From Candidatus Azobacteroides sp. (GTDB taxonomy: Bacteria > Bacteroidota > Bacteroidia > Bacteroidales > WRGA01), in assembly GCA_009787405.1 (NCBI GenBank), contig WRGA01000119.1, positions 328 through 64,327 on the forward strand: a DNA stretch of 64,000 nt, given 5' to 3'. Within the stretch, counting starts at the first letter, position 1, and every line of letters begins with the position of its first letter. The notes beneath the pieces were generated by a model that ran no database searches, had not been told where the DNA came from, and saw nothing but the letters and a program-made list of their open reading frames with translations. This document shows, one piece after another, positions 2,436-58,842 of the stretch. The position numbers and the translations under genes are program-made.

Positions 2436-2491
2436 GCTGTCCCGGCAAATATAGACTATCTAATGCTTGAAGCATTTATTCGTTGGAATTT

Positions 2492-3110: not shown

Positions 3111-3191
3111 CTATTCAAAATTTAAAATCAATCGAAAATACCTCCCCCGGCAGGACATTTTCCTGCCGGGACGATACAACCCGATTCTCAA

Positions 3192-3647
3192 TCATTTCTC
3201 TTTCTTTATTTGGGCAACTATTTTCTTTGAAAGAACATAAATGCAATACCAATATAATATGGCACCCCAAAAATAAATCAGATACATGACAGTAAACCGG
3301 ATAATAAAAGTTTCAATGTTCATTAAGCATCGATGGAAATATAGAGGCAAAAAAGGCATAGTTACCGGCGAATCCTCTATAACTAAATCCAAAGGATTAT
3401 CTGCTATTCCTCCCATCGGGCCCAACCATATTGACAATGAAAAAAGAAACCAGATCAGTGCTGCGACTCCCCATTTGATTGGTCTGATTTTAATCAGAGT
3501 AATCAAAAAAACGATTATAACCAAAATAGAATATACTCCACTTGCATTATCAATTTCAATTGTTCTTGAATATATCAGACTGAAAATGATATAAATAACC
3601 AAAAGTATTATAAAGAATATAATAGGAGTTAATATTTTCTTAATCAT
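3192..3647 (-). CDS. 4-TM small membrane protein, paralog 1, translationally coupled to the Cys-rich protein
   Basis: Its start overlaps the stop of 3644..4669 (ATGA at 3644-3647). It begins MIKKILTPIIFF and ends ...LYWYCIYVLSKKIVAQIKKEK. Confidence 0.75.
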   Translation of the reverse strand: MIKKILTPIIFFIILLVIYIIFSLIYSRTIEIDNASGVYSILVIIVFLITLIKIRPIKWGVAALIWFLFSLSIWLGPMGGIADNPLDLVIEDSPVTMPFLPLYFHRCLMNIETFIIRFTVMYLIYFWGAILYWYCIYVLSKKIVAQIKKEK

Positions 3648-9223: not shown

Positions 9224-11206
9224 ATGGCCATGATAAAACATCGCATTAAATATTATCCGTTCTTTCTGTTATCTTTCTTTTGCAGCCTGTCTGTCGCTTC
9301 CAATCAAGTCAGACTTGTTCCGACATTTATTTCTTGCAGTGTGTATATTTCATTGGATAGCGTTTCCCAATGTTTTGTCAGTTATAAAATGCAGGGAGAC
9401 AATGTCTGGAAAAAAACGCTTGCTCCTATATATGATTCTCTCAACAAAGAATGCAGGGTGAGTATTGTAAGGTTACGGGAAGACAGTGATTACGATGTTA
9501 AAGTTCAGTTAACCGTTGCCGGACAAACCGAAAAAATCATTACTTCTAATTTCCGGACATGGGCATCTGCTCCTCCTGTTGCACAAACAATTCCCGTCAG
9601 CTCTTTCAACCGCAATGAAGATGGCGGATTGGTTTTTAACCAACTTCACGGTAACCCGGAAGGCTGGATTAAAATCATAGGCGATGTTCCTGTCCATGCC
9701 GGAAAAAAGATGGAAGCTGCGGTCTTGGTCAACAAATGCAGTTATCTTCTTTTCGATGGATTGACCGTCACCGGTGGCGGAAAACACGGCATAAAAACTA
9801 CGGAACACACGTCTGATGTCCGTTTCTCCAATTGTGATATTTCACGGTGGGGAAGAAAACCCGTGCAACAAAACGAAAATGGTCACTTCCTTGATAAAAA
9901 CGGAAAAGAAATCAATAATGATGGCGGTTTCACCTTGTATAAATCGGTAAATATTGTTTTGGAACGCAGTTATATTCACGATCCCAACGGCTATACCAAT
10001 CCTTGGAACGGTACTGTGGAAATAGGAAAGTTAAAAGGCCGGAAATATACGTATGCTCATCCGCAAGGCCCCAATGCTGTATATGTGATGCAAAGCGGAG
10101 GAGGATTCGTACTGAGGTACAATGATTTGGTCGGCAGCCAGACACACCGCTACAATGATCCTGTGGAAGGATGGCAAAACAGGGATGTCGCCGGAGGATT
10201 TGCCAAAGATGCCGATATTTACGGGAATGTCATGGCTTTCGGGCAAGACGATGCGATTGAATTAGATGGCGGGCAATGCAACGTCCGGGTCTTCGATAAC
10301 CGGATGGAACAGACTTATTGTGGTGTCAGTACAGCTCCCAACAAGAAGGGGCCTTCTTACATTTTCAATAATATAATATGGAATTTGGGCAATTCGTTGG
10401 GCATGACAGGCAACGCCATTAAAAACGGCGGCGGAATGGCGCACACGGCAGGCATACAATATTTGTTCAACAACACCATTATTCATAACTCAGGAGGTAT
10501 GGCTGGCGTAGGCTATGGCGACAATACTCCTGAAAACAAACGGGAATTGTATATCGCTCAAACTCGGAATAATATTTTTTATTCTCAGTTAGATCTTGGA
10601 AACAACTATCGGAAAGGATATAATATCAATGATGTATACCGTAATCCGGCCTGTAGTTACGATTACGATATCTTGGGCAACTGTAAGGAAAAAGACGGAC
10701 GGGGAGCTATCATCGCCGCCGACGACTCCGAGAAAAACGGTATCTATGCGTTGTCCTCTTTCGAGAATCTGGAGAATGGCATCCTCATCTTGAAAGCTGA
10801 CGATCCCGGTATTCATAAAGGAATCGTTATTCCCAACTTTGCCGAAGGAACGAACCGGCTGCCGCCAAGCATGGGTGCATTTGAATTTGGCGCGGCATCC
10901 GGTCTTTTCCCCATGCGCCCGATAGCGATACAGGCCGACAAATATTTTGTCCGGATGAAAACGGGCGAACCGGTGCAACTCCGTTTTTTGACAGGAAATG
11001 AACCCGCCGCCGGATTCAAAATCCGGATGAGCGACGATATGCTCCCGTGGTTACAGGTAGATGCTTCCGATACAAGGGTCAGGCCGGGTACGGTAATCAC
11101 GTTAACCCTCAAGGCAACAGATACAGTTCCTTATACTCGCAACGGGATGTTGTTTTTTCGTTTAGACAACGGACTGTCTGTTCCTGTTACGATTTTTGCG
11201 GAATAA
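9224..11206 (+). CDS. exported FN3-like + right-handed beta-helix protein, putative polysaccharide lyase/hydrolase (family unassigned)
   Basis: It has a signal peptide. It is a paralog of 12939..15239, with shared blocks HAG...AVLV/AILVDNC, ISRWGR, YIHD.NGY.NPW, HPQGP, DADIYGN..AF.QDD.IELDG and CGVSTAPN..GPSY. It sits in a PUL. Confidence 0.6.
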   Translation: MAMIKHRIKYYPFFLLSFFCSLSVASNQVRLVPTFISCSVYISLDSVSQCFVSYKMQGDNVWKKTLAPIYDSLNKECRVSIVRLREDSDYDVKVQLTVAGQTEKIITSNFRTWASAPPVAQTIPVSSFNRNEDGGLVFNQLHGNPEGWIKIIGDVPVHAGKKMEAAVLVNKCSYLLFDGLTVTGGGKHGIKTTEHTSDVRFSNCDISRWGRKPVQQNENGHFLDKNGKEINNDGGFTLYKSVNIVLERSYIHDPNGYTNPWNGTVEIGKLKGRKYTYAHPQGPNAVYVMQSGGGFVLRYNDLVGSQTHRYNDPVEGWQNRDVAGGFAKDADIYGNVMAFGQDDAIELDGGQCNVRVFDNRMEQTYCGVSTAPNKKGPSYIFNNIIWNLGNSLGMTGNAIKNGGGMAHTAGIQYLFNNTIIHNSGGMAGVGYGDNTPENKRELYIAQTRNNIFYSQLDLGNNYRKGYNINDVYRNPACSYDYDILGNCKEKDGRGAIIAADDSEKNGIYALSSFENLENGILILKADDPGIHKGIVIPNFAEGTNRLPPSMGAFEFGAASGLFPMRPIAIQADKYFVRMKTGEPVQLRFLTGNEPAAGFKIRMSDDMLPWLQVDASDTRVRPGTVITLTLKATDTVPYTRNGMLFFRLDNGLSVPVTIFAE

Positions 11207-11241
11207 TTCAAATTTTGTTAAATAATTAATATAAATGAATC

Positions 11242-12942
11242 ATGAAAAGAAAAATTACCGGTTTAGTTTTATTATTAAATGTTGTAGTAGTTTTATTGCA
11301 GGCACAAACTACTCGTTATGTAAGCTCAGATGCAGATGCCGGAACGGGTAGTTTGCGTAATGTCATCAGCAGCGCCGGAGTGAATGATAGTATTGTCATC
11401 GAATCCACTGTTACCGAAATTATTTTGACAGCTCAAATTAAAATAACAAGTAAAGGTCTAAAGATCAACGGACAAGGAGCTACGGTGAGGGTACAGGATC
11501 CGAGTGTTTCGCCCTACCGGATATTCCAATTTGAAAGTAAAGATGGTTCAGTCCATTCGTATGCGTTGTATAATCTGACGTTGAAGGGAGGAAATACACA
11601 ATTAGCGACACTGGATGGTAATAATGGAGGGGCCGTTTCTATACCGAACGACAAGACAAATTTTATCATGAAAAATTGTGTTGTTTCCGATTGTAAAGGA
11701 ACAACCGGAGGAGCTTTGCATATGGCTAATCCTTCAGAGACCGGCGTTCTTTTGGAAAATTGTACTTTCAGAAACAATGAAGCGGTAGTTAATGCCGGCG
11801 GTAATTATGGAAATGCCGGTGTCGGGGTTTTCAGGGGAAATAACGGAATTACTTTTAAAAATTGTGTCTTTGAAAATAATACAGCTAAATATAATGCTAT
11901 AGCAACTTTTTCCGAGCCGGCAACTTTTTCCGGCTGTTATTTCAAATATAATTCGGTAATGGATAGTCCGAATACTGCTCAAGTTGCAGCATTGGTTTTA
12001 AGTCATACAAGTGGCATTACCATCATTGAAAATTGTACTTTTGAAGGCAATATACAAGATAATGCTATATCCGACAGTGACGGTAATGCCGTACTTTGTA
12101 CCAATAATTCGGCAACTTCTGCTTTAGTAACCAACTGTACCTTCTATAACAATACCGGCAAGCGGGCGGCAGTATATGGCAGAGACGGATTTTTGACCAT
12201 TGTTAATTCTACATTTGCAGGAAATATAGGGACGAATACTTCAAATAATAAACATGGGAGCGCTCTTTATATCAGAAATGCTACAGTTACATTGGTGAAC
12301 AATATTTTTGCGTATAATTATGATGCGAATGACGCTGATATTTTTGTGCAGAATAGCAATACAACCGGTTCTAACAATATTATTGCTAAAGCTCAATTTT
12401 CTTCGGGAACGATTAATTTGAACGGCCTTTCTTCTCCGGTTTCTTTTTCTTACGGAAGCGTTATTCCGGATAATGATGATGATCCTTTATTTGCAACATA
12501 TACCACAATCAACGGCAAAAAAACGCCTGAATTGGACGCTGATACCAAAACAATTCCTTTGGCGGCAGGTAGTACGGCAATTGGACAGGGTACAACAGTA
12601 TTTTCGCCTGTAACTATTCCAACCACAGATCAACGCGGTATAGCGCGCGACGCCTCTATTGATTTGGGGTCTTATGAATATGATGGTACTCTCACCGGAA
12701 TCCACACCACGCAAAAATCTTCTGAAACGATCATCTATAGATTCGATAATGATGCATTATATATTCAGGCAATTTCCGATGTTATCCGGCAAGTCGCTGT
12801 GTATAATCTACAAGGTCAATTGATCAGAAATGAGGCGGTCAATGCAGGTACCCACATGGTAACCGGTTTGACAAAAGGAATTTATGTGGTAAAAGTAATT
12901 ACCGGAAACGAAATTCAAAATCAAAAAATCATCATAAAATGA
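11242..12942 (+). CDS. T9SS-sorted beta-helix repeat protein (Pmp / choice-of-anchor-like repeats)
   Basis: It has a signal peptide and iterated units (NCVVSDCKG, NCTFRNNEA, NCVFENNTA, NCTFEGN, NCTFYNNTG, NSTFAGN). The Por-type tail reads ...VAVYNLQGQLI...GIYVVKVITGNEIQNQKIIIK. Confidence 0.7.
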   Translation: MKRKITGLVLLLNVVVVLLQAQTTRYVSSDADAGTGSLRNVISSAGVNDSIVIESTVTEIILTAQIKITSKGLKINGQGATVRVQDPSVSPYRIFQFESKDGSVHSYALYNLTLKGGNTQLATLDGNNGGAVSIPNDKTNFIMKNCVVSDCKGTTGGALHMANPSETGVLLENCTFRNNEAVVNAGGNYGNAGVGVFRGNNGITFKNCVFENNTAKYNAIATFSEPATFSGCYFKYNSVMDSPNTAQVAALVLSHTSGITIIENCTFEGNIQDNAISDSDGNAVLCTNNSATSALVTNCTFYNNTGKRAAVYGRDGFLTIVNSTFAGNIGTNTSNNKHGSALYIRNATVTLVNNIFAYNYDANDADIFVQNSNTTGSNNIIAKAQFSSGTINLNGLSSPVSFSYGSVIPDNDDDPLFATYTTINGKKTPELDADTKTIPLAAGSTAIGQGTTVFSPVTIPTTDQRGIARDASIDLGSYEYDGTLTGIHTTQKSSETIIYRFDNDALYIQAISDVIRQVAVYNLQGQLIRNEAVNAGTHMVTGLTKGIYVVKVITGNEIQNQKIIIK

Positions 12943-15239
12943 GATCAAGGTTTTTAGCCGTTTTTATGGCAGTAATCACTCTTCCTGTAGGTGCCGCCGA
13001 CCAGCTTACACTGTTTCCTTCTTTCGAGAATTGCAGTTATTATTACAATTACTCTGCCGGAGTTAGTGTCGATAAATGCTGGAATACTGCGGATGTATTT
13101 AAATTATCGTTCAAAGTTGCGGGTTCCCCGACTTGGGAAGAAGCCTTTCATGCGGTCTGGGATAATTATGCCAAACAGTTCAGAGGCTCAATTTTCTATC
13201 TTGCGGAAAATACGGAATACGACGTAAAAGTGGAAATGAATACCTCCGGCCGGTGGGTTTCCGTGGGAGAAACCACTTTCCGTACATGGAATTCCGATCC
13301 GGGTCTGAAATCTACGCTTAATCTCGGCAGTTTGGCCGCTTACAGGGAGAACCGGGCGATCACACTTTCCAATATGAAAGGTGCCGAAGACAGTTACATT
13401 AAGGTTATCGGAAATGTACCCGTTCATGCCGGTACAACAAGCGATAATGCTATTCTTGTCGATAATTGCGAATACTTGATACTCGAAGGATTTACCGTTA
13501 CCGGCGGACGGTTGAACGGGGTCAAAATCAACGACAACTGTAAAAACATTCGCATCATCGGCGCTGATATTTCCCGTTGGGGACGAATACCTGTTGACCA
13601 AGTCGATTTGTCGGATCCTGTCCATTATCCGGAAGCTAAATATAAAGATTACGATGCCGTTTATTTGGATGAACTCGGCGAATTGATACGGAACGATGCC
13701 GGAATCTGCATGGTAACAACCTCCAACGACGCTTCCCGTCCGCGTTCCGATTTGGTTGTGGAAAGGTGTTATATCCACGATCAGAACGGGTATTGCAATC
13801 CTTGGTATGGTACGCGCACACTGGGATATAGTGCCGGGAAGGAATTTCGCTATCTTCACCCGCAAGGGCCGCAAGGGATCTATATCCGAAACAGCGGGGG
13901 CTTGGTGGTCAGATACAATGATATTGTGGGATCGGACACCAAGCGATTACATGATTTATCCGGATCGATGGATAATGGCAAAACGCTCGGAGGCTATTAC
14001 CGCGATGCCGACATTTACGGTAATTTCCTCGCCTTTGCACAAGACGACGGCATCGAGCTTGACGGCAGTCAGATGAACCTGCGCTTTTACAACAACAGAA
14101 TTGAACAAGTTCGTTGTGGTGTCAGCACAGCGCCCAATCTGGCGGGGCCTTCCTATCTGATCGGCAATGTGATTCATCATGTAGGGGATTCGGAAGGCGA
14201 CAATGGCGCAGCGATTAAAAACGGGGGTGGAACGACTTATTCATTAGGGCTTACGTACTTTTTCAACAATACGATGATTGTTCCCGCAAGTTGTATTGCC
14301 GCTGTAGGATACGGCTCCGACAGCAATCAAGGCATGTTTCAGGGGTATAGCCGCAATAATATTTTAGTTTGTACCGTACCAAACAATCAATATGGCGGAA
14401 ACTGTATTCACGATCCGTACAATCACCCCAACAGCAGTTTCGATTATGATCTGCTGGCTAATACTACCCGCACAAACATGGAAGGTGTTGCCTATACTGT
14501 GGCCGGTAAAGAAGCGAACGCAGTCAAAGGCAATCCACAATTTACGGACCGGGACAATGGCGTGTATACCTTGGAATCTACGAGTCCGGCCATCGGTGCA
14601 GGTATTTCGCAGGCCAATGTCTCGACCACGGCCAATGGCGATCGTCCCGATATGGGAGCATTCGCTTTCGGAGAAAGTTCGCTTTATCCGAAACGACCCC
14701 TTGCAGCGGAATCTGATAAGTATTTAGTAAAAATTAATCCGCAGGGAGACGCTGTTGTTCAAATCAATATCGGAAGTATTCCCGAAGAATTGACTTATAC
14801 CGTTACGAAAAACGAAGATATGGACTGGTTGAATGTTTCTCCGGCAGCAGGCTCTGTAGCGCAGGAAAGTAGTTTCCGACTCCGGCTGACGGCCGACGCT
14901 TCCGACTCGAAAGTTCGTAAAGGAGTGGTTTTTGTCCGTTTTTCTAACGGCTGTTCCATTCCCGTAAGCATTTTCACCGATGTTTCTGCTCCGATGTCTA
15001 TTGCTGATGTCAAAAGAAACGATCCTGTTTTTTATGCCGTAGATAAACAATTGCTGGGTCATCCGGAATGCGCGGGAACATTGCACGTTTATGACATAAC
15101 AGGAAGGCTTGTTTATCAAGGATTCCACGAAGCCGGTAAATTGTCGTTACCGTTAGTGGCGAGTGAAGGCGTCTATATTGTCGCTTTCCGTCCTGTTAAG
15201 GGTAAAAATGTCATTCAGAAAATAATTATCCAACAATAG
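12939..15239 (+). CDS. FN3-like + right-handed beta-helix protein with a T9SS C-terminal sorting domain (paralog of 9224..11206)
   Basis: Its start overlaps the previous stop (ATGA). It shares conserved blocks with 9224..11206 and adds a C-terminal tail LHVYDITGRLVYQG...GVYIVAFRPVKGKNVIQKIIIQQ. Confidence 0.65.
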   Translation: MRSRFLAVFMAVITLPVGAADQLTLFPSFENCSYYYNYSAGVSVDKCWNTADVFKLSFKVAGSPTWEEAFHAVWDNYAKQFRGSIFYLAENTEYDVKVEMNTSGRWVSVGETTFRTWNSDPGLKSTLNLGSLAAYRENRAITLSNMKGAEDSYIKVIGNVPVHAGTTSDNAILVDNCEYLILEGFTVTGGRLNGVKINDNCKNIRIIGADISRWGRIPVDQVDLSDPVHYPEAKYKDYDAVYLDELGELIRNDAGICMVTTSNDASRPRSDLVVERCYIHDQNGYCNPWYGTRTLGYSAGKEFRYLHPQGPQGIYIRNSGGLVVRYNDIVGSDTKRLHDLSGSMDNGKTLGGYYRDADIYGNFLAFAQDDGIELDGSQMNLRFYNNRIEQVRCGVSTAPNLAGPSYLIGNVIHHVGDSEGDNGAAIKNGGGTTYSLGLTYFFNNTMIVPASCIAAVGYGSDSNQGMFQGYSRNNILVCTVPNNQYGGNCIHDPYNHPNSSFDYDLLANTTRTNMEGVAYTVAGKEANAVKGNPQFTDRDNGVYTLESTSPAIGAGISQANVSTTANGDRPDMGAFAFGESSLYPKRPLAAESDKYLVKINPQGDAVVQINIGSIPEELTYTVTKNEDMDWLNVSPAAGSVAQESSFRLRLTADASDSKVRKGVVFVRFSNGCSIPVSIFTDVSAPMSIADVKRNDPVFYAVDKQLLGHPECAGTLHVYDITGRLVYQGFHEAGKLSLPLVASEGVYIVAFRPVKGKNVIQKIIIQQ

Positions 15240-15249
15240 TAAAATTCGT

Positions 15250-18200
15250 ATGAAAAAATATCTAATACCAATAGTCTTTGTTTTCCTCTTTTGCTTTCCT
15301 GTACTGTCGGTTGCACAGGGAGAAATCTCCGGGACTGTTACCGACACATCCGGAGAACCGGTTGTGGGCGCTACTGTAGCAGTTAAAGGAACCACTGTCG
15401 GAACTGTTACGGATATAAACGGAAAATTCAGCCTGAAAATGCCCGGAAATGCAGGCGTTCTGGTATTCTCTTATTTAGGACTGCAAACGCAAGAAGTTGC
15501 GGTGAAGGAAAACCGGACAGTCTATCATATCGTTATGGAGGATAACCAAGTTCTCATGGATGAAGTTGTTGTAATCGGTTATGGAACCGTAGCCAAAAAA
15601 GACCTGACCGGCGCGGTTTCGTCCATGAGAGGAAAAAGTATAACGTCTATTCCTATTACCAATACGGAAACTGCGCTGACCGGAAGAATGGCCGGTGTAA
15701 CGGTTACTACCTCCGATGGAGCGCCTGATGCCGAGGTACAAATCCGGGTGCGTGGCGGCGGCTCCATCACACAAGACAACAGTCCGTTGTTCATCGTTGA
15801 CGGCTTTCCGGTAGAACGAATCTCAGATATTGCTCCTTCCGACATCGAATCGATCGACGTACTGAAAGACGCTTCTGCCAGCGCCATATATGGAGCGCGT
15901 GGCGCTAACGGCGTGGTTATCGTAACGACCAAATCGGCCAAAGCAGGAAAAACAATCGTCAGCTACAATGTCTACGGGCAGTGGAAACAGATCACCAAGA
16001 AATATTCGGTATTGGATTCATACGAATTTGTGAAACTGCAATACGAATTAAACGACCTCAAATTTAATCATGTGATAGATGCTTTTATCGATACTTTCGG
16101 CGATCCGGAAGATTTCGACATCTACAAAAATATCCCCGGCAGGGACAGTCAGGAAGAAATGTACGGCAAAGACGTATACGGACAGTCGCATAATCTCAGC
16201 GTGAGCGGAGGAACCGAAAAAACCAAGTTCACTACCGGGTTAACTTATCTGAAGGAAGAGGGTATCCTGAGAAATTCTTCTTTTGAAAGATTGAATGCCA
16301 ATTTCAAACTGAACCACCAATTGTTCGAGACCTTGAAGCTTGATTTGTCGGTCTACTATTCCAATGCCACAACCATGGGGGCAGGAACATCGGCTAATAC
16401 ATCAACCGAAATACGCAATGCCGTCAGTTTTCGCCCCGTGACCGGTAAAGATAGCCGTAACGCAAACAATATACTTTTCAATCCTGATTTGTACGACGAT
16501 CTCGAAGGTCAAGGCGACCTGTTCGACCCGATTGTCTTAATCGATCAAGACTACAAGAAACAAAACCGCGAAGAAGTGAACGTCAATGCGGCAGTGACTT
16601 GGGATATCATCAAAAACCTGTCATTCAAGAGCGAATACGGCCTGTTGAAAAGTCACCGGGAAACCGACCGTTTTTATGGGCCCATTACCACGATGGCACG
16701 GACTGTCGGTTCCAACCTGCCGATCGCTAAAATCACCGAAGAGGAAAGGCCTCGCCGGCGAATGACTCATACGCTCAATTATAAATTAAAAAATTTTAAA
16801 AAGCAGCATGATATAAACGCATTGCTTGGCTTTGAAGTATTTTCACAAAGTCAATCCGAAAGAAATAATACGTCCCGCCTGTTTCCGGCCGATATTACTC
16901 CGGAAGACGCTTTCGCCCGGATGCAACTTGGGTCGCCGGAATATGTGGAAGTATTCAGCGAACCCGACTATCGGTTAGTTTCTTTTTTCGGACGCGCCAA
17001 CTATTCGTTTCGAGATAAATACCTCGTTTCTTTTACTGCCCGTGCCGATGGTTCGTCCAAATTTGCTCCGGGCAGAAGATGGAGCGTTTTCCCGTCCGGA
17101 GCTGTGGCGTGGCGCTTATCGCAGGAAAATTTCCTGAAAGAAACAGAACAAATAGACGACCTTAAATTGCGCCTCAGTTATGGAGAAGCAGGAAACGACC
17201 GTATCGACAACGATATGTGGAGAATCAATTACATCGGAACCATTGACAAACCGGTAGTGGGTATCGGCAATACGCCGAATCTGTATTACAAGAAAGCTTC
17301 TTCGGTGATGACCAATCCCGACTTACGGTGGGAAACCACCGTCACCCGAAACGCCGGATCGGATTTCTCTTTTTTCAAAAGCCGCCTTTCCGGAACGCTC
17401 GACTTCTACTATAATACCACCGTAGATTTACTGTTGCAGTCTATTGTTCCCGAACAGACCGGCTACAGTTATCAGCAACAAAACATTGGTCAAACGTCCA
17501 ATAGAGGTTTTGAGATAACGCTGAACGCACCGCTTATTCAGAAAAAAGATTTCACGCTTTCCGCCTCCTTCAATTTCGCCGTGAATCGTAACAGAGTCGG
17601 TAAGTTGAACGACGGAAACTCCTCTTTCTATCGAAGCGATTGGGCAGACGGTCTGCGTGAAACCGACGATTTCATCCTGAAAGTAGGCGAGCCGGTGGGA
17701 TTGATGTACGGCTACGTCACCGATGGATTTTATACCGTTGACGATTTTGTGATTAATACCGGAGGTAAATGGGAACTCAAACCCGGAGTACCTAATGCCA
17801 CGCAAATTACCAATCCGTATTGGATAGGCAATGAGGCTGCAGGGATGCCTACCGTAGGTACCTTGAAACTCAAAAAAACTACGTCTTACAATCCCGACGA
17901 CCCGGCTTCCTGCGTTGTCACTCCCGATGATCGGCAGGTAATCGGCAATGCTCAGCCCAAAAATACCGGAGGATTCAGTTTTACATCGACCTATAAAAAC
18001 ATCGACCTGTCACTCTATTTCAACTGGGTATACGGAAACGACATTTATAATGCCAACAAGATTCTATTTACTACCTTATGGAAGAAAAACTACTATAACA
18101 TGCTTGATATTGTCGATGCTGATAACCGTTTTGTTTATACTGATGATGCCGGAAAAAGAATCACCGATATGGAACAGTTACGCGAAATGAATAAAAACGC

Positions 18201-18507
18201 TGTCATATGGAATCCGAATATGAAAAATCCCGTATTCCATTCATGGGCAGTAGAGGATGGTTCTTTTCTCCGTTTGAATAATGTGATTGTGGGGTACTCT
18301 CTTCCCAAAAATTGGATTACGAAAGTACGTCTGTCACAATGCCGCTTTTATCTGAATGTCAACAATGTTTTTGTTTGGACGAAGTATACCGGATTTGATC
18401 CGGAAGTCAATACGCGCACGCAAACGCCGCTCACGCCGGGTGTGGATTATTCTTCCTATCCCAAGGCAAGGTCATTTACGTTGGGGGCAAATATTACTTT
18501 TGAATGA
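15250..18507 (+). CDS. susC: SusC/RagA-family TonB-dependent outer-membrane transporter
   Basis: It has a carboxypeptidase-regulatory-like N-domain (GTVTDTSGEPVVGATVAVKGTTVGTVTDINGKF), a TonB box (DEVVVIGYGT) and a plug plus barrel. Length is 1085 aa and it ends ...SFTLGANITFE. Confidence 0.93.
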   Translation: MKKYLIPIVFVFLFCFPVLSVAQGEISGTVTDTSGEPVVGATVAVKGTTVGTVTDINGKFSLKMPGNAGVLVFSYLGLQTQEVAVKENRTVYHIVMEDNQVLMDEVVVIGYGTVAKKDLTGAVSSMRGKSITSIPITNTETALTGRMAGVTVTTSDGAPDAEVQIRVRGGGSITQDNSPLFIVDGFPVERISDIAPSDIESIDVLKDASASAIYGARGANGVVIVTTKSAKAGKTIVSYNVYGQWKQITKKYSVLDSYEFVKLQYELNDLKFNHVIDAFIDTFGDPEDFDIYKNIPGRDSQEEMYGKDVYGQSHNLSVSGGTEKTKFTTGLTYLKEEGILRNSSFERLNANFKLNHQLFETLKLDLSVYYSNATTMGAGTSANTSTEIRNAVSFRPVTGKDSRNANNILFNPDLYDDLEGQGDLFDPIVLIDQDYKKQNREEVNVNAAVTWDIIKNLSFKSEYGLLKSHRETDRFYGPITTMARTVGSNLPIAKITEEERPRRRMTHTLNYKLKNFKKQHDINALLGFEVFSQSQSERNNTSRLFPADITPEDAFARMQLGSPEYVEVFSEPDYRLVSFFGRANYSFRDKYLVSFTARADGSSKFAPGRRWSVFPSGAVAWRLSQENFLKETEQIDDLKLRLSYGEAGNDRIDNDMWRINYIGTIDKPVVGIGNTPNLYYKKASSVMTNPDLRWETTVTRNAGSDFSFFKSRLSGTLDFYYNTTVDLLLQSIVPEQTGYSYQQQNIGQTSNRGFEITLNAPLIQKKDFTLSASFNFAVNRNRVGKLNDGNSSFYRSDWADGLRETDDFILKVGEPVGLMYGYVTDGFYTVDDFVINTGGKWELKPGVPNATQITNPYWIGNEAAGMPTVGTLKLKKTTSYNPDDPASCVVTPDDRQVIGNAQPKNTGGFSFTSTYKNIDLSLYFNWVYGNDIYNANKILFTTLWKKNYYNMLDIVDADNRFVYTDDAGKRITDMEQLREMNKNAVIWNPNMKNPVFHSWAVEDGSFLRLNNVIVGYSLPKNWITKVRLSQCRFYLNVNNVFVWTKYTGFDPEVNTRTQTPLTPGVDYSSYPKARSFTLGANITFE

Positions 18508-18526
18508 AAAATTAATAATTAAAATA

Positions 18527-20341
18527 ATGAAACAACTATATAAAATCAGTGCATTATTTATTAGTATGGTATGTTTATTTTGTGCTTGTGAAGATTTCCT
18601 GAATACAAATTCCAAATCACAACTCAACGAAACGACCATGTACAATACGGAAGGCGACATATACAGAGCTGTGTTGGGGATCTATTCCGCTATTATGGTG
18701 GATGGTGTATATGGATTAGACATTCCGTTTATTTTCTGTTATAGCAGCGATATTGAATACGGAGAATGTAACGCCGCCGTTGATAATTCCCGGAGAGGCA
18801 TTTGGGATTATTCGGTTTCGTCTGATAACGATGAAATCGGACGGGCTTGGGGTCCTATTTATTCTGCCGTTAATACAGCCAACGAGTGTATCGAAGGAAT
18901 AGAAAAAAGCGACTTGTTTGCCGAATCTTCTCCGGAAGTACCGTCTGTGGTACGGCAACTCTACGGAGAAGCTAAAGCCATGCGCGCCATGCTCTACCTT
19001 GACTTGGTTCGCAATTGGGGCGACGTACCTTTCCTGACTAAGGGAACCAAAGCCGGCGATGATTTCTATCAAGGGGTAACAAATCGCAACGAAATTCTCT
19101 CTTGGCTGATAAACGATCTGATAGATGCCGAACCGGCCATGTTTTATGCTTCCGAAATTTCACAGTCGATAGAACGATTTAACAGAGGCGCCGTACAAGG
19201 ATTCATTGCCCGAATGTCGCTGGCTCGCGGAGGTTATTCTCTCTACCCTGATTACAACAATCCGTCGGCACCGGGAGAAATGAAAAGACCGGACGACTAT
19301 TTGGAATACTACCGTATCGCCAATACTTATGCCCGAAAACTGCAAACATCGGGTAAACATGGTTTGCTTTCAAGTTTTGCCCAAGTGTTTGTCAATGAAT
19401 GTCAGGAAATTTATCCATCCGGTGATGATGTGCTGTTTGAAATTCCTTTTGCTACATCCTACAATGGCAATACAGGTGTTATTGTCGGACACCGGGTCAA
19501 TCAAAGCAAGAATAACCCCTACGGATGGTCGAGCGGATGGTATTATGCCACGATTACTTATCATGCATCCTTCGATTACAGCGATATACGTCGTGATGTT
19601 ACCTGCGCTCCCTATTCGTGGAGTTGGAATGCCGAAAAAGGCCGTATGGAACAAGTCTTTTCGGAATGGAGATCTATTTACATCGGTAAGTGGAACAGAT
19701 TGTGGATGAAAATACAACAAGGCCCTGACGCCCAATACAGCACAGGCATCAACTTCCCGGTAATCCGTTATGCCGACGTATTGTTGATGTTGGCGGAAAC
19801 GGAGAACGAATTGAACAACGGCCCGACCGACGATGCCCGTAATGCACTTAAGGAAGTACGTCTCCGTGCTTTCCCCGAAAACGTGCAGCATATAAAGGTA
19901 GAGAAATATGTGAACGACCTTGTCACTTACGGCGAGTTTTTTCATGCTGTTCAAAATGAACGCGCATGGGAATTCGGGGGCGAAGCCATCCGCAAATACG
20001 ACCTTATCCGCTGGAATCGCATGGGCAACATCCGGCAAATGAAAATAGACGTAAGCAACATGAGCGGTGATGCCGGTTACCCGAAATATGTGTATACGAA
20101 AACAAAAGATGATGGTACGCTCGATATTCTCAACTTCGATAACACCATGGCTGCTGCTCTGGCCGGATATACCCGCAGGGATTGGGCTGTCGGCACCGCT
20201 ACCGGTGGTTTTACCACTTACGATAAGAGTTTCAAGGACGAATATATTAACCCCGAACCGATGGTGTACATTTTTCCTTTATATAAAGATGTTATAACCG
20301 ACAGTCGCGGTGCATTGAAAAATTATTATGGAAAAAAATAA
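18527..20341 (+). CDS. susD: SusD/RagB-family nutrient-binding lipoprotein
   Basis: I chose the internal start MKQLYKISALFISMVCLFCAC (lipobox), 19 nt after susC. SusD-like blocks are present (RAMLYLDLVRNWGDVPF, FPVIRYADVLLMLAE, ERAWEFGGEAIRKYDLIRW). Confidence 0.9.
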   Translation: MKQLYKISALFISMVCLFCACEDFLNTNSKSQLNETTMYNTEGDIYRAVLGIYSAIMVDGVYGLDIPFIFCYSSDIEYGECNAAVDNSRRGIWDYSVSSDNDEIGRAWGPIYSAVNTANECIEGIEKSDLFAESSPEVPSVVRQLYGEAKAMRAMLYLDLVRNWGDVPFLTKGTKAGDDFYQGVTNRNEILSWLINDLIDAEPAMFYASEISQSIERFNRGAVQGFIARMSLARGGYSLYPDYNNPSAPGEMKRPDDYLEYYRIANTYARKLQTSGKHGLLSSFAQVFVNECQEIYPSGDDVLFEIPFATSYNGNTGVIVGHRVNQSKNNPYGWSSGWYYATITYHASFDYSDIRRDVTCAPYSWSWNAEKGRMEQVFSEWRSIYIGKWNRLWMKIQQGPDAQYSTGINFPVIRYADVLLMLAETENELNNGPTDDARNALKEVRLRAFPENVQHIKVEKYVNDLVTYGEFFHAVQNERAWEFGGEAIRKYDLIRWNRMGNIRQMKIDVSNMSGDAGYPKYVYTKTKDDGTLDILNFDNTMAAALAGYTRRDWAVGTATGGFTTYDKSFKDEYINPEPMVYIFPLYKDVITDSRGALKNYYGKK

Positions 20342-20344
20342 ACG

Positions 20345-22060
20345 ATGAAAACAAAGAAGTATTATGGTTACATATCACTGCTTGCAGGAATTATTTGCTT
20401 GTTTGCAGCAGCTTGTGAAGACAAGGATAACTACGATGAGCCGCGTCTTTTCAAACCGACCGGTTTGTCGGTCAGAGTGTCGTACAACAATGTTAGCGCT
20501 ACATGGAAAGCTACGGATGGAGCCGAAGGATATGAAATAGAAGCTTCGGTTTCTCAAACGTTTGAAACCGGCGATACAATAATTTATACCGATGGAAGTA
20601 CCTTGTCTGCGCAATTCACCGGATTGCAAGAAAACCGGCTTTACTATTTTCGGTTGCGCGGGATAATGAGCGACCCGCAATGCAATTCCAAATACATCTA
20701 TGCACAAATAACTACGCAAGCGGCTTTTTCTGTTTTCTATCCGGTTAATCAGGATTCCATATCTTATTCGGCAGCCATACTCAAATTGCGTGAAGAAGTT
20801 ATTGCCGACAGAATGGTTGTCATCAAAACATCCGGCGACGGAGGTTCCTTTGAGCAGGCGGTAAGCACGGTAGAGTTGAAAAACAAGCGTATCCGGATCG
20901 AGGGGTTGGAAGCCGGTGAATCCTACAAAGTTATTTTGTACAACGGCAGTGAATCGTATGGCTATACGGTATTTACGTTACCCTCTGTCCCGGAAAGAAT
21001 GATAATTATAGACGCCGGTAATAAAGAACAATTGCAAAGTTTACTTGACAATGCCGAAGAAGGTGCTGTTTTTATGTTTCGGGGAAATGTGTTTGATTAT
21101 TCGACAACAGACATCGTTCTCGGCAAAGCTGTTACGCTGATGGGAGAACCGGGCGTTCCCAAGCCCAAATTGTATGTGAAAAATCTGCTGATTGGCGGAA
21201 GAAATGCGGCGGCATCAATCATTGTCGGCAAAATATCGCTGCTCCGCATTGATTTTTCAGGTTACAAGCTGAACGGAAGTACAGAACAAACTTCGGCAGA
21301 ACCCAATCGTTACCTGCTCTCGTGCGATTTTACACAAACTCCCGACATTACTGTTCAACAGATAGATGTACAGGATTGTATGATCCGCAATTACAGTTAT
21401 AGTTTCTTGGAATTGAATGATAAATTGAAAGTAAACGCTGCCAATAAAGTTGTCATCGACGAGATAAATGTGATGCGGACCATTGCTTTCGACTTGGGAA
21501 GAAATAACAGCGGCTATTCTTCATTTATCAGTATTTGCAACAATGCGGCTAATAATGGGTACTGCAAACGGTACAATATTCAAAACAGCACGTTCCATCA
21601 TTTGTTGAGAGGCATGATAGAAGCGCGTATATTTGTTGCGGAACAGGCTGAAGCGAATGTCTTGGTTGAGTCTTGTACTTTTGATTATTCAGGAAAACAA
21701 GATCCTGCGTTAACGGGACGATGGTACGGAACAAACTCCGAGATGACCAAGCCTATATTTGACTTCAAAGCAACGGACGCCGTATCAGCAGTACAAATGA
21801 ATATCAATAACAGTATTTTCGGAGAATTATTTGCAGAGAAGTTAAGTAATGCTTTTTCGCAAGGAATTTCCTCCGTCAGTTTTGGCGGTAGTTTCATGTT
21901 GGCAGCTTCCAAACAGGCAATTACATCAGGAACATTACTGATAACCAACATCAACGCAACGATTAACGAACTATTTCCGAAACGGGCTGATTTTAATTAC
22001 ACAGTAGGAACGGCATTGCCCGAAACGGTTAAAAATGCGGGAGACCCCGGATGGAGATGA
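20345..22060 (+). CDS. surface lipoprotein, FN3 domain + beta-helix-like region (resembles DUF4957/DUF5123 proteins of pectin PULs)
   Basis: It has a lipobox (LFAAC) and an FN3-like segment (PTGLSVRVSYNNVSATWKATDGAEGYEIE...YYFRLRG). It directly follows susD. The family name is from memory and was not searched. Confidence 0.55.
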   Translation: MKTKKYYGYISLLAGIICLFAAACEDKDNYDEPRLFKPTGLSVRVSYNNVSATWKATDGAEGYEIEASVSQTFETGDTIIYTDGSTLSAQFTGLQENRLYYFRLRGIMSDPQCNSKYIYAQITTQAAFSVFYPVNQDSISYSAAILKLREEVIADRMVVIKTSGDGGSFEQAVSTVELKNKRIRIEGLEAGESYKVILYNGSESYGYTVFTLPSVPERMIIIDAGNKEQLQSLLDNAEEGAVFMFRGNVFDYSTTDIVLGKAVTLMGEPGVPKPKLYVKNLLIGGRNAAASIIVGKISLLRIDFSGYKLNGSTEQTSAEPNRYLLSCDFTQTPDITVQQIDVQDCMIRNYSYSFLELNDKLKVNAANKVVIDEINVMRTIAFDLGRNNSGYSSFISICNNAANNGYCKRYNIQNSTFHHLLRGMIEARIFVAEQAEANVLVESCTFDYSGKQDPALTGRWYGTNSEMTKPIFDFKATDAVSAVQMNINNSIFGELFAEKLSNAFSQGISSVSFGGSFMLAASKQAITSGTLLITNINATINELFPKRADFNYTVGTALPETVKNAGDPGWR

Positions 22061-25000
22061 AAAAAATAAAGAAAGCAATCATTGCAGGCTTGTGCGGACT
22101 GTGCGCAAGCCTTGCACTACAAGCCGCCGACATTCCCCGCCGGGCCGTTTATCCGGTGAGGGACGCAATGGAAATCAAGTCGCTGAATGGTGTCTGGAAA
22201 TTTCGGCTGGTGCCGGAGGGTAAAATTCCTGCGTCTGAAACCGATTTCTTCCGACCGGAGTTTAACGACGGAGCATGGGATCATATTCGTGTACCGGCTA
22301 ACTGGGAAATGGAAGGGAAAAAAGAGCCTGAATACGGAGGCGATATCCGGGATTGCCTCGGATTATACCGGACAACCTTCCGGCTCAATTCGGCTTGGCA
22401 GTCCAAACACGTCATCCTGCGGTTCGACGGAGTATTGTTTGCTTACGATGTATATGTGAACGGGCATCATGTCGGATATTGGGCAAGCTCGTTCAACATG
22501 TGTCAGTTCGACATTACGCCTTTCATTTATTTCGATGGACCGAATGTGCTGGCGGTGAAAGTTTCCACACGGGCCAAAGGTTATCGTTTCGACCTGAACG
22601 ATGATTGGGCGTTGTCGGGAATTTTCCGTGATGTGGAACTTTTCTCCGTTCCCGATACTCATTTAAAAGACGTTACGTTCAAGAGTTTTCTCAAGGATGA
22701 TCATAAGGCAATGATTTCCGTTGATGTTTCTGTCGACGCTTTTACCGGGCCGCCCGGTGAGTTGTACGTACAGGCGATGTTAAACGATGAATCCGGAAAA
22801 ACGGTTTGCGCTTTTCGCAACAAAATGAACCGGGAAGGAGAAGCTCTGACGCATTTTGAAGGCCTCATAGAACAACCAACGCTTTGGACAGCCGAAACGC
22901 CGTATCTGTATCGTTTGGAAGTTTATCTTACCGATGTTAAAAATAATGTTGTTCAACACATTACGGAAAAAGTAGGCATTCGCGAAGTTTCCGTTAAAGA
23001 TGGAATATTGCTGATTAACAACAAACCTGTACACATTCGCGGCGTGTGCATGAATGAGATGCATCCCACATTGGGACGGGCATGGACGGATGAGGTGCGG
23101 ATACACGACCTGAAAATGCTGAAAGCGGCCAATGCAAATTTTGTCCGCACGGCGCATTATCCTTTTCACCCGCGCTTTTTGGAAATATGCGATGAGCTGG
23201 GGCTGTATGTTTGCAATGAAGTGCCTTTCGGCTACGGCGATATGCATCTGACGGATCCCGCTTATCAAGACGAACTTTACAAGCGTGCCGAAGCAACCAT
23301 CGCACGGGATAAAAATCATCCGTCGGTTATAGTTTGGAGCGTAGGCAACGAAAATCCCTATACGGAATTGGTGGAAAATACCGTGCAATATGTCAAGGAG
23401 AAAGACCCGACCCGACCGCGTGTGTTGCCGATGGTGGGTACGTATTTCATGGAAAACCGTGAACGATTGTCGGATAATGTAAGCATGTATTCCTTTCATT
23501 ATCAATCGCCCGAAGCGGTAGAACGTATTGCGAAATTGAATGAAAAACCCATCTTGCTGACGGAATATTCACATTCATTAGGACTATCGTTTGATGCACT
23601 CGAAGCGCAGTATGCCATGATGAAGAAATATAAAAACATCGCCGGTGGTTCTGTCTGGGATTGGGCGGATCAGGCGATACTGAAAACACGCAGCAAACAA
23701 GAGTTTCTCAACGATACCCTTGTGCAGGGTGTTTGGAAAGATTCCACACAATATTACGATAGTTTCAATGACCGGGGCAGCGATGGTATCGTTTACGCCA
23801 ACCGCTATCCGCAAGAAGACTACCGGCAAGTGCGCAAAGTTTATTCTCCGGTTGTGTTTACGGACTCATTGATTCATGCAGCAACAGGAAATCAGGAAAT
23901 CAGGCTTACCATCGAAAATCGTTTCGACTTTATTTCCCTGTGTGGGTATCAATGTCGGTGGGCATTAAAAAATTTCCGGCAAATCTTGTCTTTCGGGGTG
24001 ATAGACTTGAATACGCCTGCACAAAGCCAAAGCGAAGTAAAACTTACGGTGAACGTTCCGGATTCGGTTGCGTACCGCGATTACGTATTGGTTTTAACCG
24101 TATACGACAAACAAATGCATGCGGTATGCGAACGTTCTCTTCCGTTGCTCGTAAACGCTGAGCCATTGAACTACCCGGTGTTGCTTAATCGTGAATTTGC
24201 CGGAAAAACATGGAAGGTAGAAAAAGGTAAAACCATTCGCGCTGCCACCGATGATTTGCGTTTTTCTTTAGATCATAACGGAAAAATACGATTGACCGGT
24301 AAAGGCGGAAAAGTATATTTGGATAGTGAACTGCTGATTCGTGTAGGCCGGAAACCAACCATCAATTTGCTGAACTTGGGTATGCGCCGTAAAGATCTGT
24401 TCTATTGGAATCCCTATTTGTTGCCGCCCGAAATAGTCGGAAAAAATGTTTACCAAACAAAAGATACATTGCATATTGCACTGGATTGCCGTTGGAACCG
24501 ACAGGAAAAACAAGGGGAATATATTGACGGAAAAATAAATATCGCAGTCTCCCGCAACAGTGTAATTCACTTTGACTATAGCGTGAAGCCTCAACAGGCA
24601 ACGGGCAGTCTTTTGGAATTTGGACTTGCCTTATGCTTACCGTTTGATGTTACGACATTTCGCTGGCTGGGCGATGGGCCGTTTTCTTCTACTCCCGGCA
24701 AGAGGGCGCTCAATGAGAAAGATGTTTGGACATTGGATAAAGACGACATCCGTTTCACCGGCAACCGTGCCAATGTAGATGTTGCTTTGTTTACCGGCGA
24801 TGATAACTATGCGATAGGTTTTGCCGGTAACCGTTCTGATTTGGGTGTAGAAAATATAGACGGCAGGATTGTCATTTCCGACAATCTCGTTGTGGTAGGA
24901 TACGGAACGAAACTTTCTCAGCCCATTAATGAACAAAAGGCTGACAAAATAGGGGAGAAGCGAGGCGCTTTTTGTCTGACGATAGTAAATACCATTCAGA

Positions 25001-25083
25001 ATAAGGGGTTGTTCCATGCTGTTTTCAGTCCTTATGATATTGTATTGCCCGAAAAACCATTTCTGAAAAGTTACGGGTTTTAA
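22051..25083 (+). CDS. glycoside hydrolase family 2 (beta-galactosidase-like)
   Basis: It has a signal peptide and a sugar-binding domain (NGHHVGYWASSFNMCQFDIT). The TIM barrel carries RTAHYPFHPRFLEICDELGLYV, WSVGNENP (acid/base) and LLTEYSH (nucleophile). Length is 1010 aa. Confidence 0.88.
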   Translation: MEMKKIKKAIIAGLCGLCASLALQAADIPRRAVYPVRDAMEIKSLNGVWKFRLVPEGKIPASETDFFRPEFNDGAWDHIRVPANWEMEGKKEPEYGGDIRDCLGLYRTTFRLNSAWQSKHVILRFDGVLFAYDVYVNGHHVGYWASSFNMCQFDITPFIYFDGPNVLAVKVSTRAKGYRFDLNDDWALSGIFRDVELFSVPDTHLKDVTFKSFLKDDHKAMISVDVSVDAFTGPPGELYVQAMLNDESGKTVCAFRNKMNREGEALTHFEGLIEQPTLWTAETPYLYRLEVYLTDVKNNVVQHITEKVGIREVSVKDGILLINNKPVHIRGVCMNEMHPTLGRAWTDEVRIHDLKMLKAANANFVRTAHYPFHPRFLEICDELGLYVCNEVPFGYGDMHLTDPAYQDELYKRAEATIARDKNHPSVIVWSVGNENPYTELVENTVQYVKEKDPTRPRVLPMVGTYFMENRERLSDNVSMYSFHYQSPEAVERIAKLNEKPILLTEYSHSLGLSFDALEAQYAMMKKYKNIAGGSVWDWADQAILKTRSKQEFLNDTLVQGVWKDSTQYYDSFNDRGSDGIVYANRYPQEDYRQVRKVYSPVVFTDSLIHAATGNQEIRLTIENRFDFISLCGYQCRWALKNFRQILSFGVIDLNTPAQSQSEVKLTVNVPDSVAYRDYVLVLTVYDKQMHAVCERSLPLLVNAEPLNYPVLLNREFAGKTWKVEKGKTIRAATDDLRFSLDHNGKIRLTGKGGKVYLDSELLIRVGRKPTINLLNLGMRRKDLFYWNPYLLPPEIVGKNVYQTKDTLHIALDCRWNRQEKQGEYIDGKINIAVSRNSVIHFDYSVKPQQATGSLLEFGLALCLPFDVTTFRWLGDGPFSSTPGKRALNEKDVWTLDKDDIRFTGNRANVDVALFTGDDNYAIGFAGNRSDLGVENIDGRIVISDNLVVVGYGTKLSQPINEQKADKIGEKRGAFCLTIVNTIQNKGLFHAVFSPYDIVLPEKPFLKSYGF

Positions 25084-25222
25084 GTATGGTGAAAAAATAG
25101 TTTATATTTTAAATGCCAAAGTCGCCAAGGCAGAAAGACACGAAGTTTAAAATCTTTGCGGCTTTGCATCTTCGCGTTTAAAATCATTTAAATTGAAAAT
25201 ACTGATAAAGAAAATACGAACA

Positions 25223-58791: not shown

Positions 58792-58842
58792 TTTATTATA
58801 TTCAAATCGTTATAAACTGTCTTTGTCTGTTATGCTGTCGTT

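Follow-up and report, generated by a model that had tools for sequence, protein, structure and literature searches.

Paralogous β-helix proteins as candidate rhamnogalacturonan-I backbone lyases in a Candidatus Azobacteroides polysaccharide utilisation locus without a recognisable lyase

Enzymes of family GH105 act only on 4,5-unsaturated uronyl ends, and a polysaccharide utilisation locus (PUL) of Candidatus Azobacteroides sp. encodes such an enzyme next to no lyase that can be recognised; which of its proteins, then, would provide the substrate? The locus lies on contig WRGA01000119.1 (assembly GCA_009787405.1, positions 328 to 64,327), a stretch of 64 kb that was analysed as a whole and is called the window here. 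Its genes form a co-oriented block on the plus strand (9224-34630), in the order A, B, C, SusC, SusD, fn3 lipoprotein, GH2, GH28-SGNH, a 569-aa protein of the type IX secretion system (T9SS), a hybrid two-component system (HTCS) regulator and GH105 (Table 1). Pfam scans revealed no polysaccharide-lyase family anywhere in the window, the locus included, in agreement with a sequence-only reading of the same DNA, which had described a set of GH2, GH28, acetylesterase and GH105 without a lyase signature and had pointed to two large open reading frames (ORFs), here A and C, as the missing depolymerase. A and C emerge from our analysis as the foremost candidates for cleaving the pectin backbone, probably as lyases. 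More specifically, we tentatively read them as lyases of the rhamnogalacturonan-I (RG-I) backbone that form a new family, with a probability somewhat below one half (about 0.47).

The two ORFs are paralogs, as had been claimed: BLASTP aligned them over 685 columns with 37% identity and 56% positives (E 4e-155), and all four conserved blocks quoted earlier, namely YIHDPNGYTNPW/YIHDQNGYCNPW, HPQGP, DADIYGN..AF.QDD.IELDG and CGVSTAPN..GPSY, are common to both proteins in this alignment. The FN3 and β-helix context was supported by several signals. The FN3 domain of A has FN3 matches in Foldseek with a template modelling (TM) score of about 0.7 on the target, the family profile matches the FN3 domains of tenascin and NCAM, and both A and C gave sub-threshold matches to Pfam Beta_helix. 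The AlphaFold2 (AF2) model of full-length A, built from a 49-sequence alignment, reached a pLDDT of 93.6 and a pTM of 0.92, and a model of the helix alone a pLDDT of 95.3. For the C-terminal immunoglobulin (Ig)-like sandwich, a weak Pfam match to BACON_2 was found in C, and homologues carry precomputed PF19190 assignments.

Only C possesses a T9SS sorting domain, again as read from the sequence alone; this domain also weakly matches the C-terminal domain (CTD) of gingipain (chain 7pq4). The N-terminal signal peptide of C is MRSRFLAVFMAVITLPVGA, followed by AD, and the deposited record names the protein as T9SS type A sorting domain-containing, from the Candidatus Azobacteroides sp. metagenome-assembled genome (MAG). 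As T9SS cargo, C would be expected at the cell surface or in the medium. No T9SS domain, lipobox or NCBIfam match was found in A. Since A and its orthologues have signals of the signal peptidase I type (in the orthologues ending in A followed by Q) without a sorting domain, A is predicted to be periplasmic.

Neither protein matched any enzyme family in Pfam or NCBIfam, and phmmer searches with both against all PDB sequences returned no related chain. A full-length family profile retrieved from PDB sequences (hmmsearch) FN3 domains and one marginal match, 9rx2 (‘Parallel beta-helix repeat protein’, E 0.095). This match vanished with the helix-only profile, for which no PDB sequence was found at E≤10, and no paper mentioning 9rx2 was found. 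Individual families were examined in the same way. No PL9 chain appeared among PDB sequences even at E≤10, either by phmmer with A and C or with the two family profiles. For PL1, PL3, PL6 and PL31, there was no match to Pfam Pectate_lyase, Pec_lyase_C or Chondroitinas_B and no PDB chain by profiles. For PL11, neither RGL11_C nor RGI_lyase matched A or C, and A is a β-helix, not a β-propeller. PL4 and PL26 were judged solely by fold and by the absence of any lyase-family match. PL40 was considered as ulvan also contains Rha-(1-4)-uronate and ulvan loci carry GH105; PL40 ulvan lyase, however, is an (α/α)6 toroid with an antiparallel β-sheet domain and His/Tyr catalysis (PMC12915356), unlike the all-β protein A. 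A 2026 review of pectin lists PL4, PL9, PL11 and PL26 as the only RG-I lyases, and no description of the A/C family was found in the literature on new PL families, PL43-46, Monoglobus, or RG-I together with hypothetical β-helix proteins. The fold is of a known kind, yet the searches linked no known family to A and C by sequence. The A/C family is therefore a candidate for a new family in CAZy, although neither its fold nor, probably, its chemistry is new; it is set apart by Pfam, NCBIfam and PDB sequences, which stand as proxies for CAZy's own models, and may already have been classified in CAZy.

In Foldseek searches, the full-length model of A gave weak generic β-helix matches only, with AlgG, a C5-epimerase, at the top. 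With the helix-only model the best match was the pectate lyase Pel9A of PL9 (E 2.1e-6, TM 0.42/0.46, 14% identity), followed by GH136 lacto-N-biosidases, PL6, AlgG, PL1, PL31 and AlgE4, all with TM below 0.5. The prominence of uronate lyases and epimerases among these matches, together with the lack of any other recognisable lyase in the locus or window, speaks for a lyase. The comparison with β-helix lyases that the sequence-only reading had called for yields a likeness to PL9 at the level of fold only. Of its two suggestions, a divergent PL9-like family or an undescribed one, the first holds in so far as PL9 is the best structural neighbour and fails on sequence membership, and the second is consistent with the lack of any GH or PL match in Pfam, NCBIfam and the PDB.

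Pel9A of Dickeya (1RU4) is joined among the Foldseek matches by BT4170 of B. thetaiotaomicron (5OLQ/5OLR), and both PL9 and the A/C family occur in pectin or RG-I loci. The A/C family differs from PL9 in its N-terminal FN3 and C-terminal Ig-like domains, and the two lack a sequence relationship detectable by profiles. Similarly, PL6 and the C5-epimerases AlgG and AlgE4 are related in fold (TM up to 0.49 for PL6, E 6.9e-5 for AlgG), and by analogy the A/C family might share with them a β-helix cleft that acts on uronates by abstraction of the C5 proton. They show no sequence relationship to A and C, however, their substrates are alginate and dermatan sulfate, and neither their catalytic Lys/Arg nor the DPHD motif can be recognised in the A/C family.

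The candidate active site of the family deserves special attention. Conservation was counted over 267 unique family helix domains and is given in the numbering of A. Eleven charged residues are conserved in 97-100% of the domains: D312, D343 and E346 are invariant, position 348 is always D or E, D342, K400, H252, H279 and R298 reach 99%, E247 98% and R355 97%. The uncharged W261 is likewise conserved in 99%. The acidic motif D342-D348 might bind Ca2+ or provide catalytic acids, and K400 is a candidate Brønsted base or carboxylate-binding lysine. An Asn ladder (N300, N335, N359, N383, N417 and N450) marks the rungs of the helix. K400 stands two turns further along than D342, at the equivalent position of its rung, with the small residues C366/G367 and S369 between the two; C366 is conserved in just 72% of the domains. 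Altogether, about 20 polar residues are invariant across phyla at about 32% identity, and because so many charged residues are kept at this distance, the A/C family would seem to consist of enzymes rather than binding proteins.

The order D312..D342-x3-E346..K400 parallels the Ca2+ ligands D209, D233 and D237 and the base K273 of Pel9A, with spacings of 30/4/54 and 24/4/36, respectively, a parallel in sequence order and not in superposed residues. The lysine thus stands 54 residues past the acidic motif in the A/C family versus 36 in Pel9A, and the additional invariant residues H252, H279, R298 and R355 set the family further apart from PL9. Invariant acids in a cleft for an anionic substrate would be easier to explain with a bridging Ca2+.

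The family is large and widely distributed. At E≤1e-5, a word-indexed search yielded 387 relatives, of which those with names are recorded as ‘hypothetical protein’, as ‘right-handed parallel beta-helix repeat-containing protein’ or after a domain (T9SS sorting domain, LamG-like). A profile search of 1.84 billion cluster representatives retrieved 1214 proteins at E≤1e-30 and 2807 at E≤1e-10, and a scan of GTDB with one genome for each species confirmed 286 stretches that encode members. Carriers include Bacteroidota, Clostridia, Paenibacillus and Hahella, with most in Lentisphaerota, Verrucomicrobiota, Planctomycetota and Kiritimatiellota. They comprise human-gut Bacteroides (B. difficilis and B. 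congonensis), Bacteroidales of rumen and insect guts, gut Clostridia and, widely, bacteria of the Planctomycetes-Verrucomicrobia-Chlamydiae (PVC) group. Family members bear T9SS CTD, dockerin (i.e., of the cellulosome type), SLH, CBM9, CBM4_9, LamG, BACON and Cu_amine_oxidN1 modules. No second known catalytic module was found on long members in a search for fusions. The T9SS, dockerin, SLH, CBM9, CBM4_9 and LamG modules suggest an architecture for attack on polymers, which favours the reading as lyases.

In a plasmid collection the only homologue was a distant, unannotated one, encoded by plasmid pPP1 of Persicobacter psychrovividus (L086, NZ_AP025293.1, 572640-573812; 27.5% identity). The host is a marine bacterium of the Cytophagales, the plasmid is a megaplasmid of 1.07 Mb, and the region of the family member carries no features in the distributed annotation.

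The gene partnership of the family was analysed in 81 non-redundant loci, where the neighbours include homologues of the PUL esterase (SGNH, 20), GH105 (12, or 15 by tblastn), GH28 (10) and the PL11 RG lyase (4). The PUL of B. difficilis and B. congonensis has the full enzyme set of the window and no known PL: its order is SusC-SusD-fn3 lipoprotein-GH2-GH28-GDSL-A-GH105-C, with GH105 between the paralogs, and unrelated genes follow. MAGs of rumen and other Bacteroidales keep the order A-C-SusC-SusD-fn3 of the window; their flanks, of 10 kb each, end short of the position at which GH105 lies in the window. A PUL of Flavobacteriaceae is arranged as HTCS-GH105-GDSL-SusC-SusD-A-GH2-GH28-SASA esterase. 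In two Clostridia loci, a pair of secreted family members is accompanied by a GDSL protein and a GH105 without a recognisable signal peptide, which is presumably cytoplasmic; ABC-transporter genes are present in one of the two. The trio of family member, esterase and GH105 accordingly recurs in Clostridia and Flavobacteriaceae. One sequence in the fetched loci, presumed to be PL9, turned out not to belong to it.

Within the clade sharing more than 45% identity with the window protein, the partners are BT4146-like GH28, pectin-acetylesterase-like SGNH, LacZ-type GH2 and YteR-like GH105, with PL11 in two loci. This set of RG-type GH28, acetylesterase, β-galactosidase, YteR-like GH105 and sometimes PL11 is that of acetylated RG-I, and the conserved partnership ties the A/C family to acetylated RG-I and unsaturated products. 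Several complete GH105 loci from three phyla have no known source of unsaturated ends; of the uncharacterised protein families, A/C alone occurs in every one of these loci.

Two loci show further arrangements near an A-type gene. In locus L021 (Dysgonamonadaceae MAG JAITQA010000046.1), a single ORF of 1834 aa (L021:11975-17476) unusually fuses GH105, GH28 and GH2 domains, possibly through an assembly or frameshift artefact; it lies directly downstream of the A-type gene and a PL11 gene, and the same three activities are separate in the window. In locus L011, a frameshift seems to have split the A-type gene, and between it and a block of GH105-GH28-GH115-GH43 lies the gene of a DUF4861 protein (L011:12015-13397), a further uncharacterised family that accompanies pectin genes.

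Since the complete GH105 loci contain no known source of unsaturated ends and have the A/C family in common, we propose a scheme in which both paralogs cut the backbone of acetylated RG-I, [-2)-α-L-Rha-(1-4)-α-D-GalA-(1-]n, where Rha is rhamnose and GalA galacturonic acid. T9SS-exported C would make the first cuts to the polymer outside the cell, SusC/D would import the fragments and periplasmic A would cut the imported oligosaccharides further. The SGNH esterase would strip O-acetyl groups, GH2 would trim galactose stubs, GH105 would remove the 4,5-unsaturated GalA left at the new non-reducing ends and GH28 the saturated terminal GalA. The cut would most likely be a metal-assisted β-elimination at the Rha-(1-4)-GalA bond, in which the acidic cluster D312/D342/D343/E346/D348 might hold Ca2+ against the GalA carboxylate and K400 might abstract H5.

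A comparable division of labour exists in Bacillus subtilis, which degrades RG-I without a rhamnosidase through the paralogous PL11 lyases YesW (endo) and YesX (exo), GH105 (YesR/YteR), CE12 esterases (YesT/YesY) and a β-galactosidase (YesZ). The window PUL would resemble this system in having two paralogous backbone enzymes, as proposed for A and C, together with GH105, acetylesterase and β-galactosidase and no rhamnosidase. Moreover, extracellular cleavage followed by GH105 inside the cell is mirrored in the layout of the Clostridia loci of the A/C family. PL11 is a β-propeller, in contrast, and the β-helix proteins A and C lack a PL11 Pfam signal; the two families coexist in four loci.

We put forward with more reserve the further proposal that A and C found an undescribed PL family, with a β-helix, a Ca2+/Lys-type site and FN3/Ig flanks, specific for α-L-rhamnosyl-(1-4)-uronate. 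Among Clostridia and the Bacteroidota of gut, rumen and termites, its substrate might be RG-I; in PVC bacteria of the sea it might possibly act on acidic glycans, sulfated or other. The pair of endo- and oligo-acting enzymes might make known RG lyases and rhamnosidases dispensable.

The claim that A and C are the missing depolymerase draws on the large conserved family, its invariant charged residues and the orthologous PULs without a known lyase, and it meets with a number of observations that weigh against it. The similarity to PL9 in the models is one of fold (TM below 0.5, 14% identity), with a comparable TM for hydrolases of GH136. The lyase chemistry is a prediction from conserved residues and gene partnership. 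PL11 stands directly upstream of an A-type gene in two PULs (a Bacteroides MAG and a Dysgonamonadaceae MAG), both without a C-type paralog, so that unsaturated ends need not always come from the family alone. Where a genuine PL11 neighbours the family outside the window, it scores 1e-46 to 1e-86 in Pfam. No GH78 or GH106 rhamnosidase was found among the neighbours in the scanned GH105-containing loci. The conserved exo-type GH28 would fit a hydrolytic cycle, in which a hydrolase of the A/C family could fill the rhamnosidase gap.

Several of these points are shared by the main rival explanation, which we regard as rather unlikely: A and C would form a new glycoside hydrolase family acting on the RG-I backbone, most plausibly on the α-L-Rha-(1-4)-GalA bond. 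A would then be a periplasmic rhamnogalacturonan rhamnohydrolase alternating with the exo-acting GH28, C would be an extracellular endo-version of it, and GH105 would process only unsaturated ends made by other lyases, be it PL11 in some genomes or enzymes of other community members. β-Helix endorhamnosidases, such as phage tailspikes, and GH28 rhamnohydrolases exist. No known rhamnosidase was found in the window PUL by Pfam scan, and the set of PL11, GH105, GH28, GH2 and A in L021 and L011 lacks only a rhamnosidase; a hydrolase would also explain an A-type gene next to PL11. In the two Clostridia loci, by contrast, the putatively cytoplasmic GH105 directly follows secreted family genes, and in PULs without a known lyase nothing encoded in the locus would supply GH105 with a substrate. 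For exo-rhamnosidases, moreover, architectures of the cellulosomal, CBM-bearing or T9SS kind are unusual.

The motifs of the family bear on the same question, as they follow the order of GH28 about as well as that of PL9. Four active-site segments are known in GH28: NTD, DD, GHG and RIK (PMC6102391). In the A/C family, YND312, GQD342D343, CG[VI]S369 and [AS][IV]K400 follow the GH28 order NTD, GDD, CGPGHGIS and RIK, with a spacing of 30/24/31 that resembles motifs I-IV of GH28, and the string DD[GA]I is common to the family and the GH28 of the window PUL. In A. niger PGII, a member of GH28, the spacing is 21/21/35. Moreover, both are β-helix enzymes or proteins of pectin loci that co-occur in the same PULs, and GH28 is found among the Foldseek neighbours together with the other β-helix hydrolase families GH136 (TM 0.46), GH110, GH87 and GH141.

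Direct comparison nevertheless separates the two families. GH28 scores weaker in Foldseek than PL9 and PL6, and the Pfam model PF00295, which the GH28 of the window matches, gave no match to A or C at E≤0.01. When aligned by hhalign to a 10-sequence GH28 alignment, the family reached a probability of 13.7% over residues of about 170-297 of A, a part of the helix other than that of the QDD motif; hhalign against the window GH28 was insignificant or fell on the wrong helix part. The catalytic His of GH28 segment III has no conserved counterpart (C366 lies there, at its 72%), the Arg of RIK is absent, and the invariant E346 and D348 are without a GH28 equivalent but have one in PL9.

The substrate may also be other than RG-I. 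In most PVC loci neither GH105 nor pectin genes were found, so that the specificity of the family is probably broader than RG-I. Most neighbours there encode GntR-SBP (substrate-binding protein) regulators or DUF1559 pseudopilin-like proteins, nine loci also have sulfatases, and none of these indicates the substrate. In about 30-34 loci of Lentisphaerota, Planctomycetota and Verrucomicrobiota (within L017-L084), the family gene stands in a recurring cassette with a regulator of about 450 aa, composed of a GntR N-terminal and a periplasmic-binding domain, and a DUF1559/N-methyl pseudopilin-like protein of about 260 aa; this cassette may be a PVC counterpart of the PUL organisation. An explanation that overlaps with the others, and to which we give little credence for the window, is that A and C are depolymerases of another acetylated uronic-acid glycan of Rha-uronate or similar type, such as an exopolysaccharide of bacterial or protist origin or a polymer resembling ulvan. 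GH105 also acts on unsaturated glucuronyl ends. Most family members do belong to PVC phyla and marine taxa, often beside those sulfatases and without pectin genes, and a locus of Bacteroidaceae reads sulfatase-family member-GH105-sulfatase; the partners within the clade above 45% identity, on the other hand, are the RG-I enzyme set.

The locus encodes three further uncharacterised secreted proteins, and it is conceivable, though improbable, that the missing lyase is one of them (the fn3 lipoprotein, B or the 569-aa protein), with A and C as accessory proteins, i.e., glycosidase, esterase, C5-epimerase or binder. For the latter role one might cite AlgG at the top of the full-length Foldseek search; the invariant polar residues of A and C, about 20 in number, are typical of enzymes and not of binders. 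The fn3 lipoprotein shares its phyletic pattern with C, a further point against the reading of A and C as lyases: it is kept after SusD in seven related PULs, exactly those with both A and C. Its N-terminus has a lipobox for surface export (AAC followed by EDKDNYDE), and two FN3-like domains precede a C-terminal region of about 350 aa, whose sequence suggests a short β-helix. No PDB match was obtained for this lipoprotein, no Pfam match for its C-terminal region and no relation to the A/C family. No copy is present in those Flavobacteriaceae and Clostridia loci where the A/C family still accompanies GH105 and an esterase, and a position after SusD is usual for surface glycan-binding proteins; the lipoprotein may be such a protein or an enzyme.

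B and the 569-aa protein are T9SS cargo as well. B passes the Pfam Beta_helix threshold with 34.5 bits and matches NCBIfam choice_anch_Q and TIGR04183. The 569-aa protein has weak BLASTP similarity to B and the same architecture; both show N-terminal starts of the GSL..I type, an anchor-Q-like segment DQ.G..R....G.YE, FxxN repeats and a T9SS domain. Neither is a hidden A/C paralog, with hhalign probabilities against the A/C family of 1% for B and about 1% for the 569-aa protein. Neither was matched in 84 related loci (tblastn, E≤1e-10), and a later blastp at E≤1e-5 gave one short match in the sorting-domain region and none over the full length. Because of this lack of full-length matches in related PULs, and with their likeness to Pmp-type adhesins, they look like lineage-specific surface proteins and are unlikely to be core enzymes; B is probably an accessory surface protein.

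Table 1 Features of the locus with their positions in the window
Feature	Position	Strand	Basis and remarks
Protein A, 660 aa	9224..11206	+	Signal peptide, FN3, right-handed β-helix, C-terminal Ig-like domain
FN3 domain of A, residues 29-111	9308..9556	+	β-sandwich in AF2 model
β-helix of A, residues about 118-560, putative catalytic domain	9575..10903	+	AF2 models
Acidic motif D342-D343-A-I-E346-L-D348 in GQDDAIELDG of A	10247..10267	+	Equivalent in C D369-D375, 14043-14063
K400 codon of A, AIKNGGG strand	10421..10423	+	Equivalent in C K427, 14217-14219
Ig-like/BACON-like β-sandwich of A, residues 569-659	10928..11200	+	Strand-only domain in AF2 model
Protein B, 566 aa	11242..12942	+	Pmp-like β-helix, FxxN repeats, choice-of-anchor Q, T9SS CTD
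Protein C, 766 aa, paralog of A	12939..15239	+	FN3, β-helix with two insertions (alignment), Ig-like domain, T9SS CTD
T9SS type A sorting domain of C, residues 711-765	15069..15233	+	TIGR04183, 24.9 bits versus cut-off 23
SusC-like TonB-dependent transporter	15250..18507	+	CarbopepD_reg_2 and Plug domains (Pfam)
SusD-like protein	18356..20341 (ORF as listed)	+	SusD_RagB and SusD-like_3 (Pfam)
fn3 surface lipoprotein, 571 aa	20345..22060	+	Lipobox/export signal; Pfam fn3
GH2, LacZ-type β-galactosidase-like	22051..25083	+	Pfam GH2 domains; best NCBIfam model LacZ-type β-galactosidase, 464 bits
GH28 fused to SGNH/GDSL acetylesterase	25193..27478	+	Pfam GH28 (2e-24) and Lipase_GDSL_2
569-aa T9SS-secreted protein	27556..29265	+	TIGR04183; distant Pmp-like relative of B
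HTCS hybrid two-component sensor/regulator	29350..33261	+	Reg_prop, Y_Y_Y, HisKA, HATPase_c, Response_reg, HTH_18
GH105, YteR-like unsaturated rhamnogalacturonyl hydrolase, lipoprotein signal	33290..34630	+	PF07470 at 2.4e-64

The remainder of the locus agrees with a typical PUL of Bacteroidota, with adjacent SusC and SusD genes, co-oriented genes of carbohydrate-active enzymes and a sensor/regulator, all on the plus strand between 15250 and 34630. The true start of SusD is probably just past the stop of SusC, as the N-terminal residues of the listed ORF are unlike a signal peptide. The GH28 part is closest to the model of the BT4146 rhamnogalacturonidase (NCBIfam RhamgalacuronBT4146, 283 bits), and the SGNH esterase part of the same protein resembles pectin acetylesterase PaeY (NCBIfam). 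The two parts, fused in a single ORF in the window, are encoded by two adjoining genes in the orthologous PUL of Bacteroides (L001:7570-9989). GH105, a protein of the GH88/105 fold, has the N-terminal sequence LFSC followed by SAQQ and matches in the PDB 4wu0 (2.7e-55) and YteR (1nc5 at 6e-43; 1nc5/2gh4 at about 1e-42).

No further enzyme acting on carbohydrates was found by Pfam scan in the rest of the window. An 813-aa protein unrelated to the PUL (46203-48644) fuses pyridine nucleotide-disulfide oxidoreductase, rhodanese, TusA and DsrE-like domains in a CoA-disulfide-reductase-like sulfur-transfer protein. Two stretches of the window (2001-4000 and 56001-60000) are markedly AT-rich, with a G+C fraction of 0.31-0.34 versus 0.42-0.47 in the PUL; the ORFs 3644-4669, 1785-2435 and 58126-58791 in these stretches had no Pfam match.

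Overall, the conceptual step would be a moderate one, as the fold and the likely chemistry are already of known kinds. If A and C were confirmed as enzymes, a function would be assigned to a family of at least 1200 sequence clusters. Should the reading as backbone lyases or its hydrolase alternative be true, the RG-I backbone would gain a new CAZy family, PL or GH, and RG-I oligosaccharides could be tailored with a new enzyme. PULs that possess GH105 but no recognisable lyase would then be explained, and pectin use could be better predicted from genomes.

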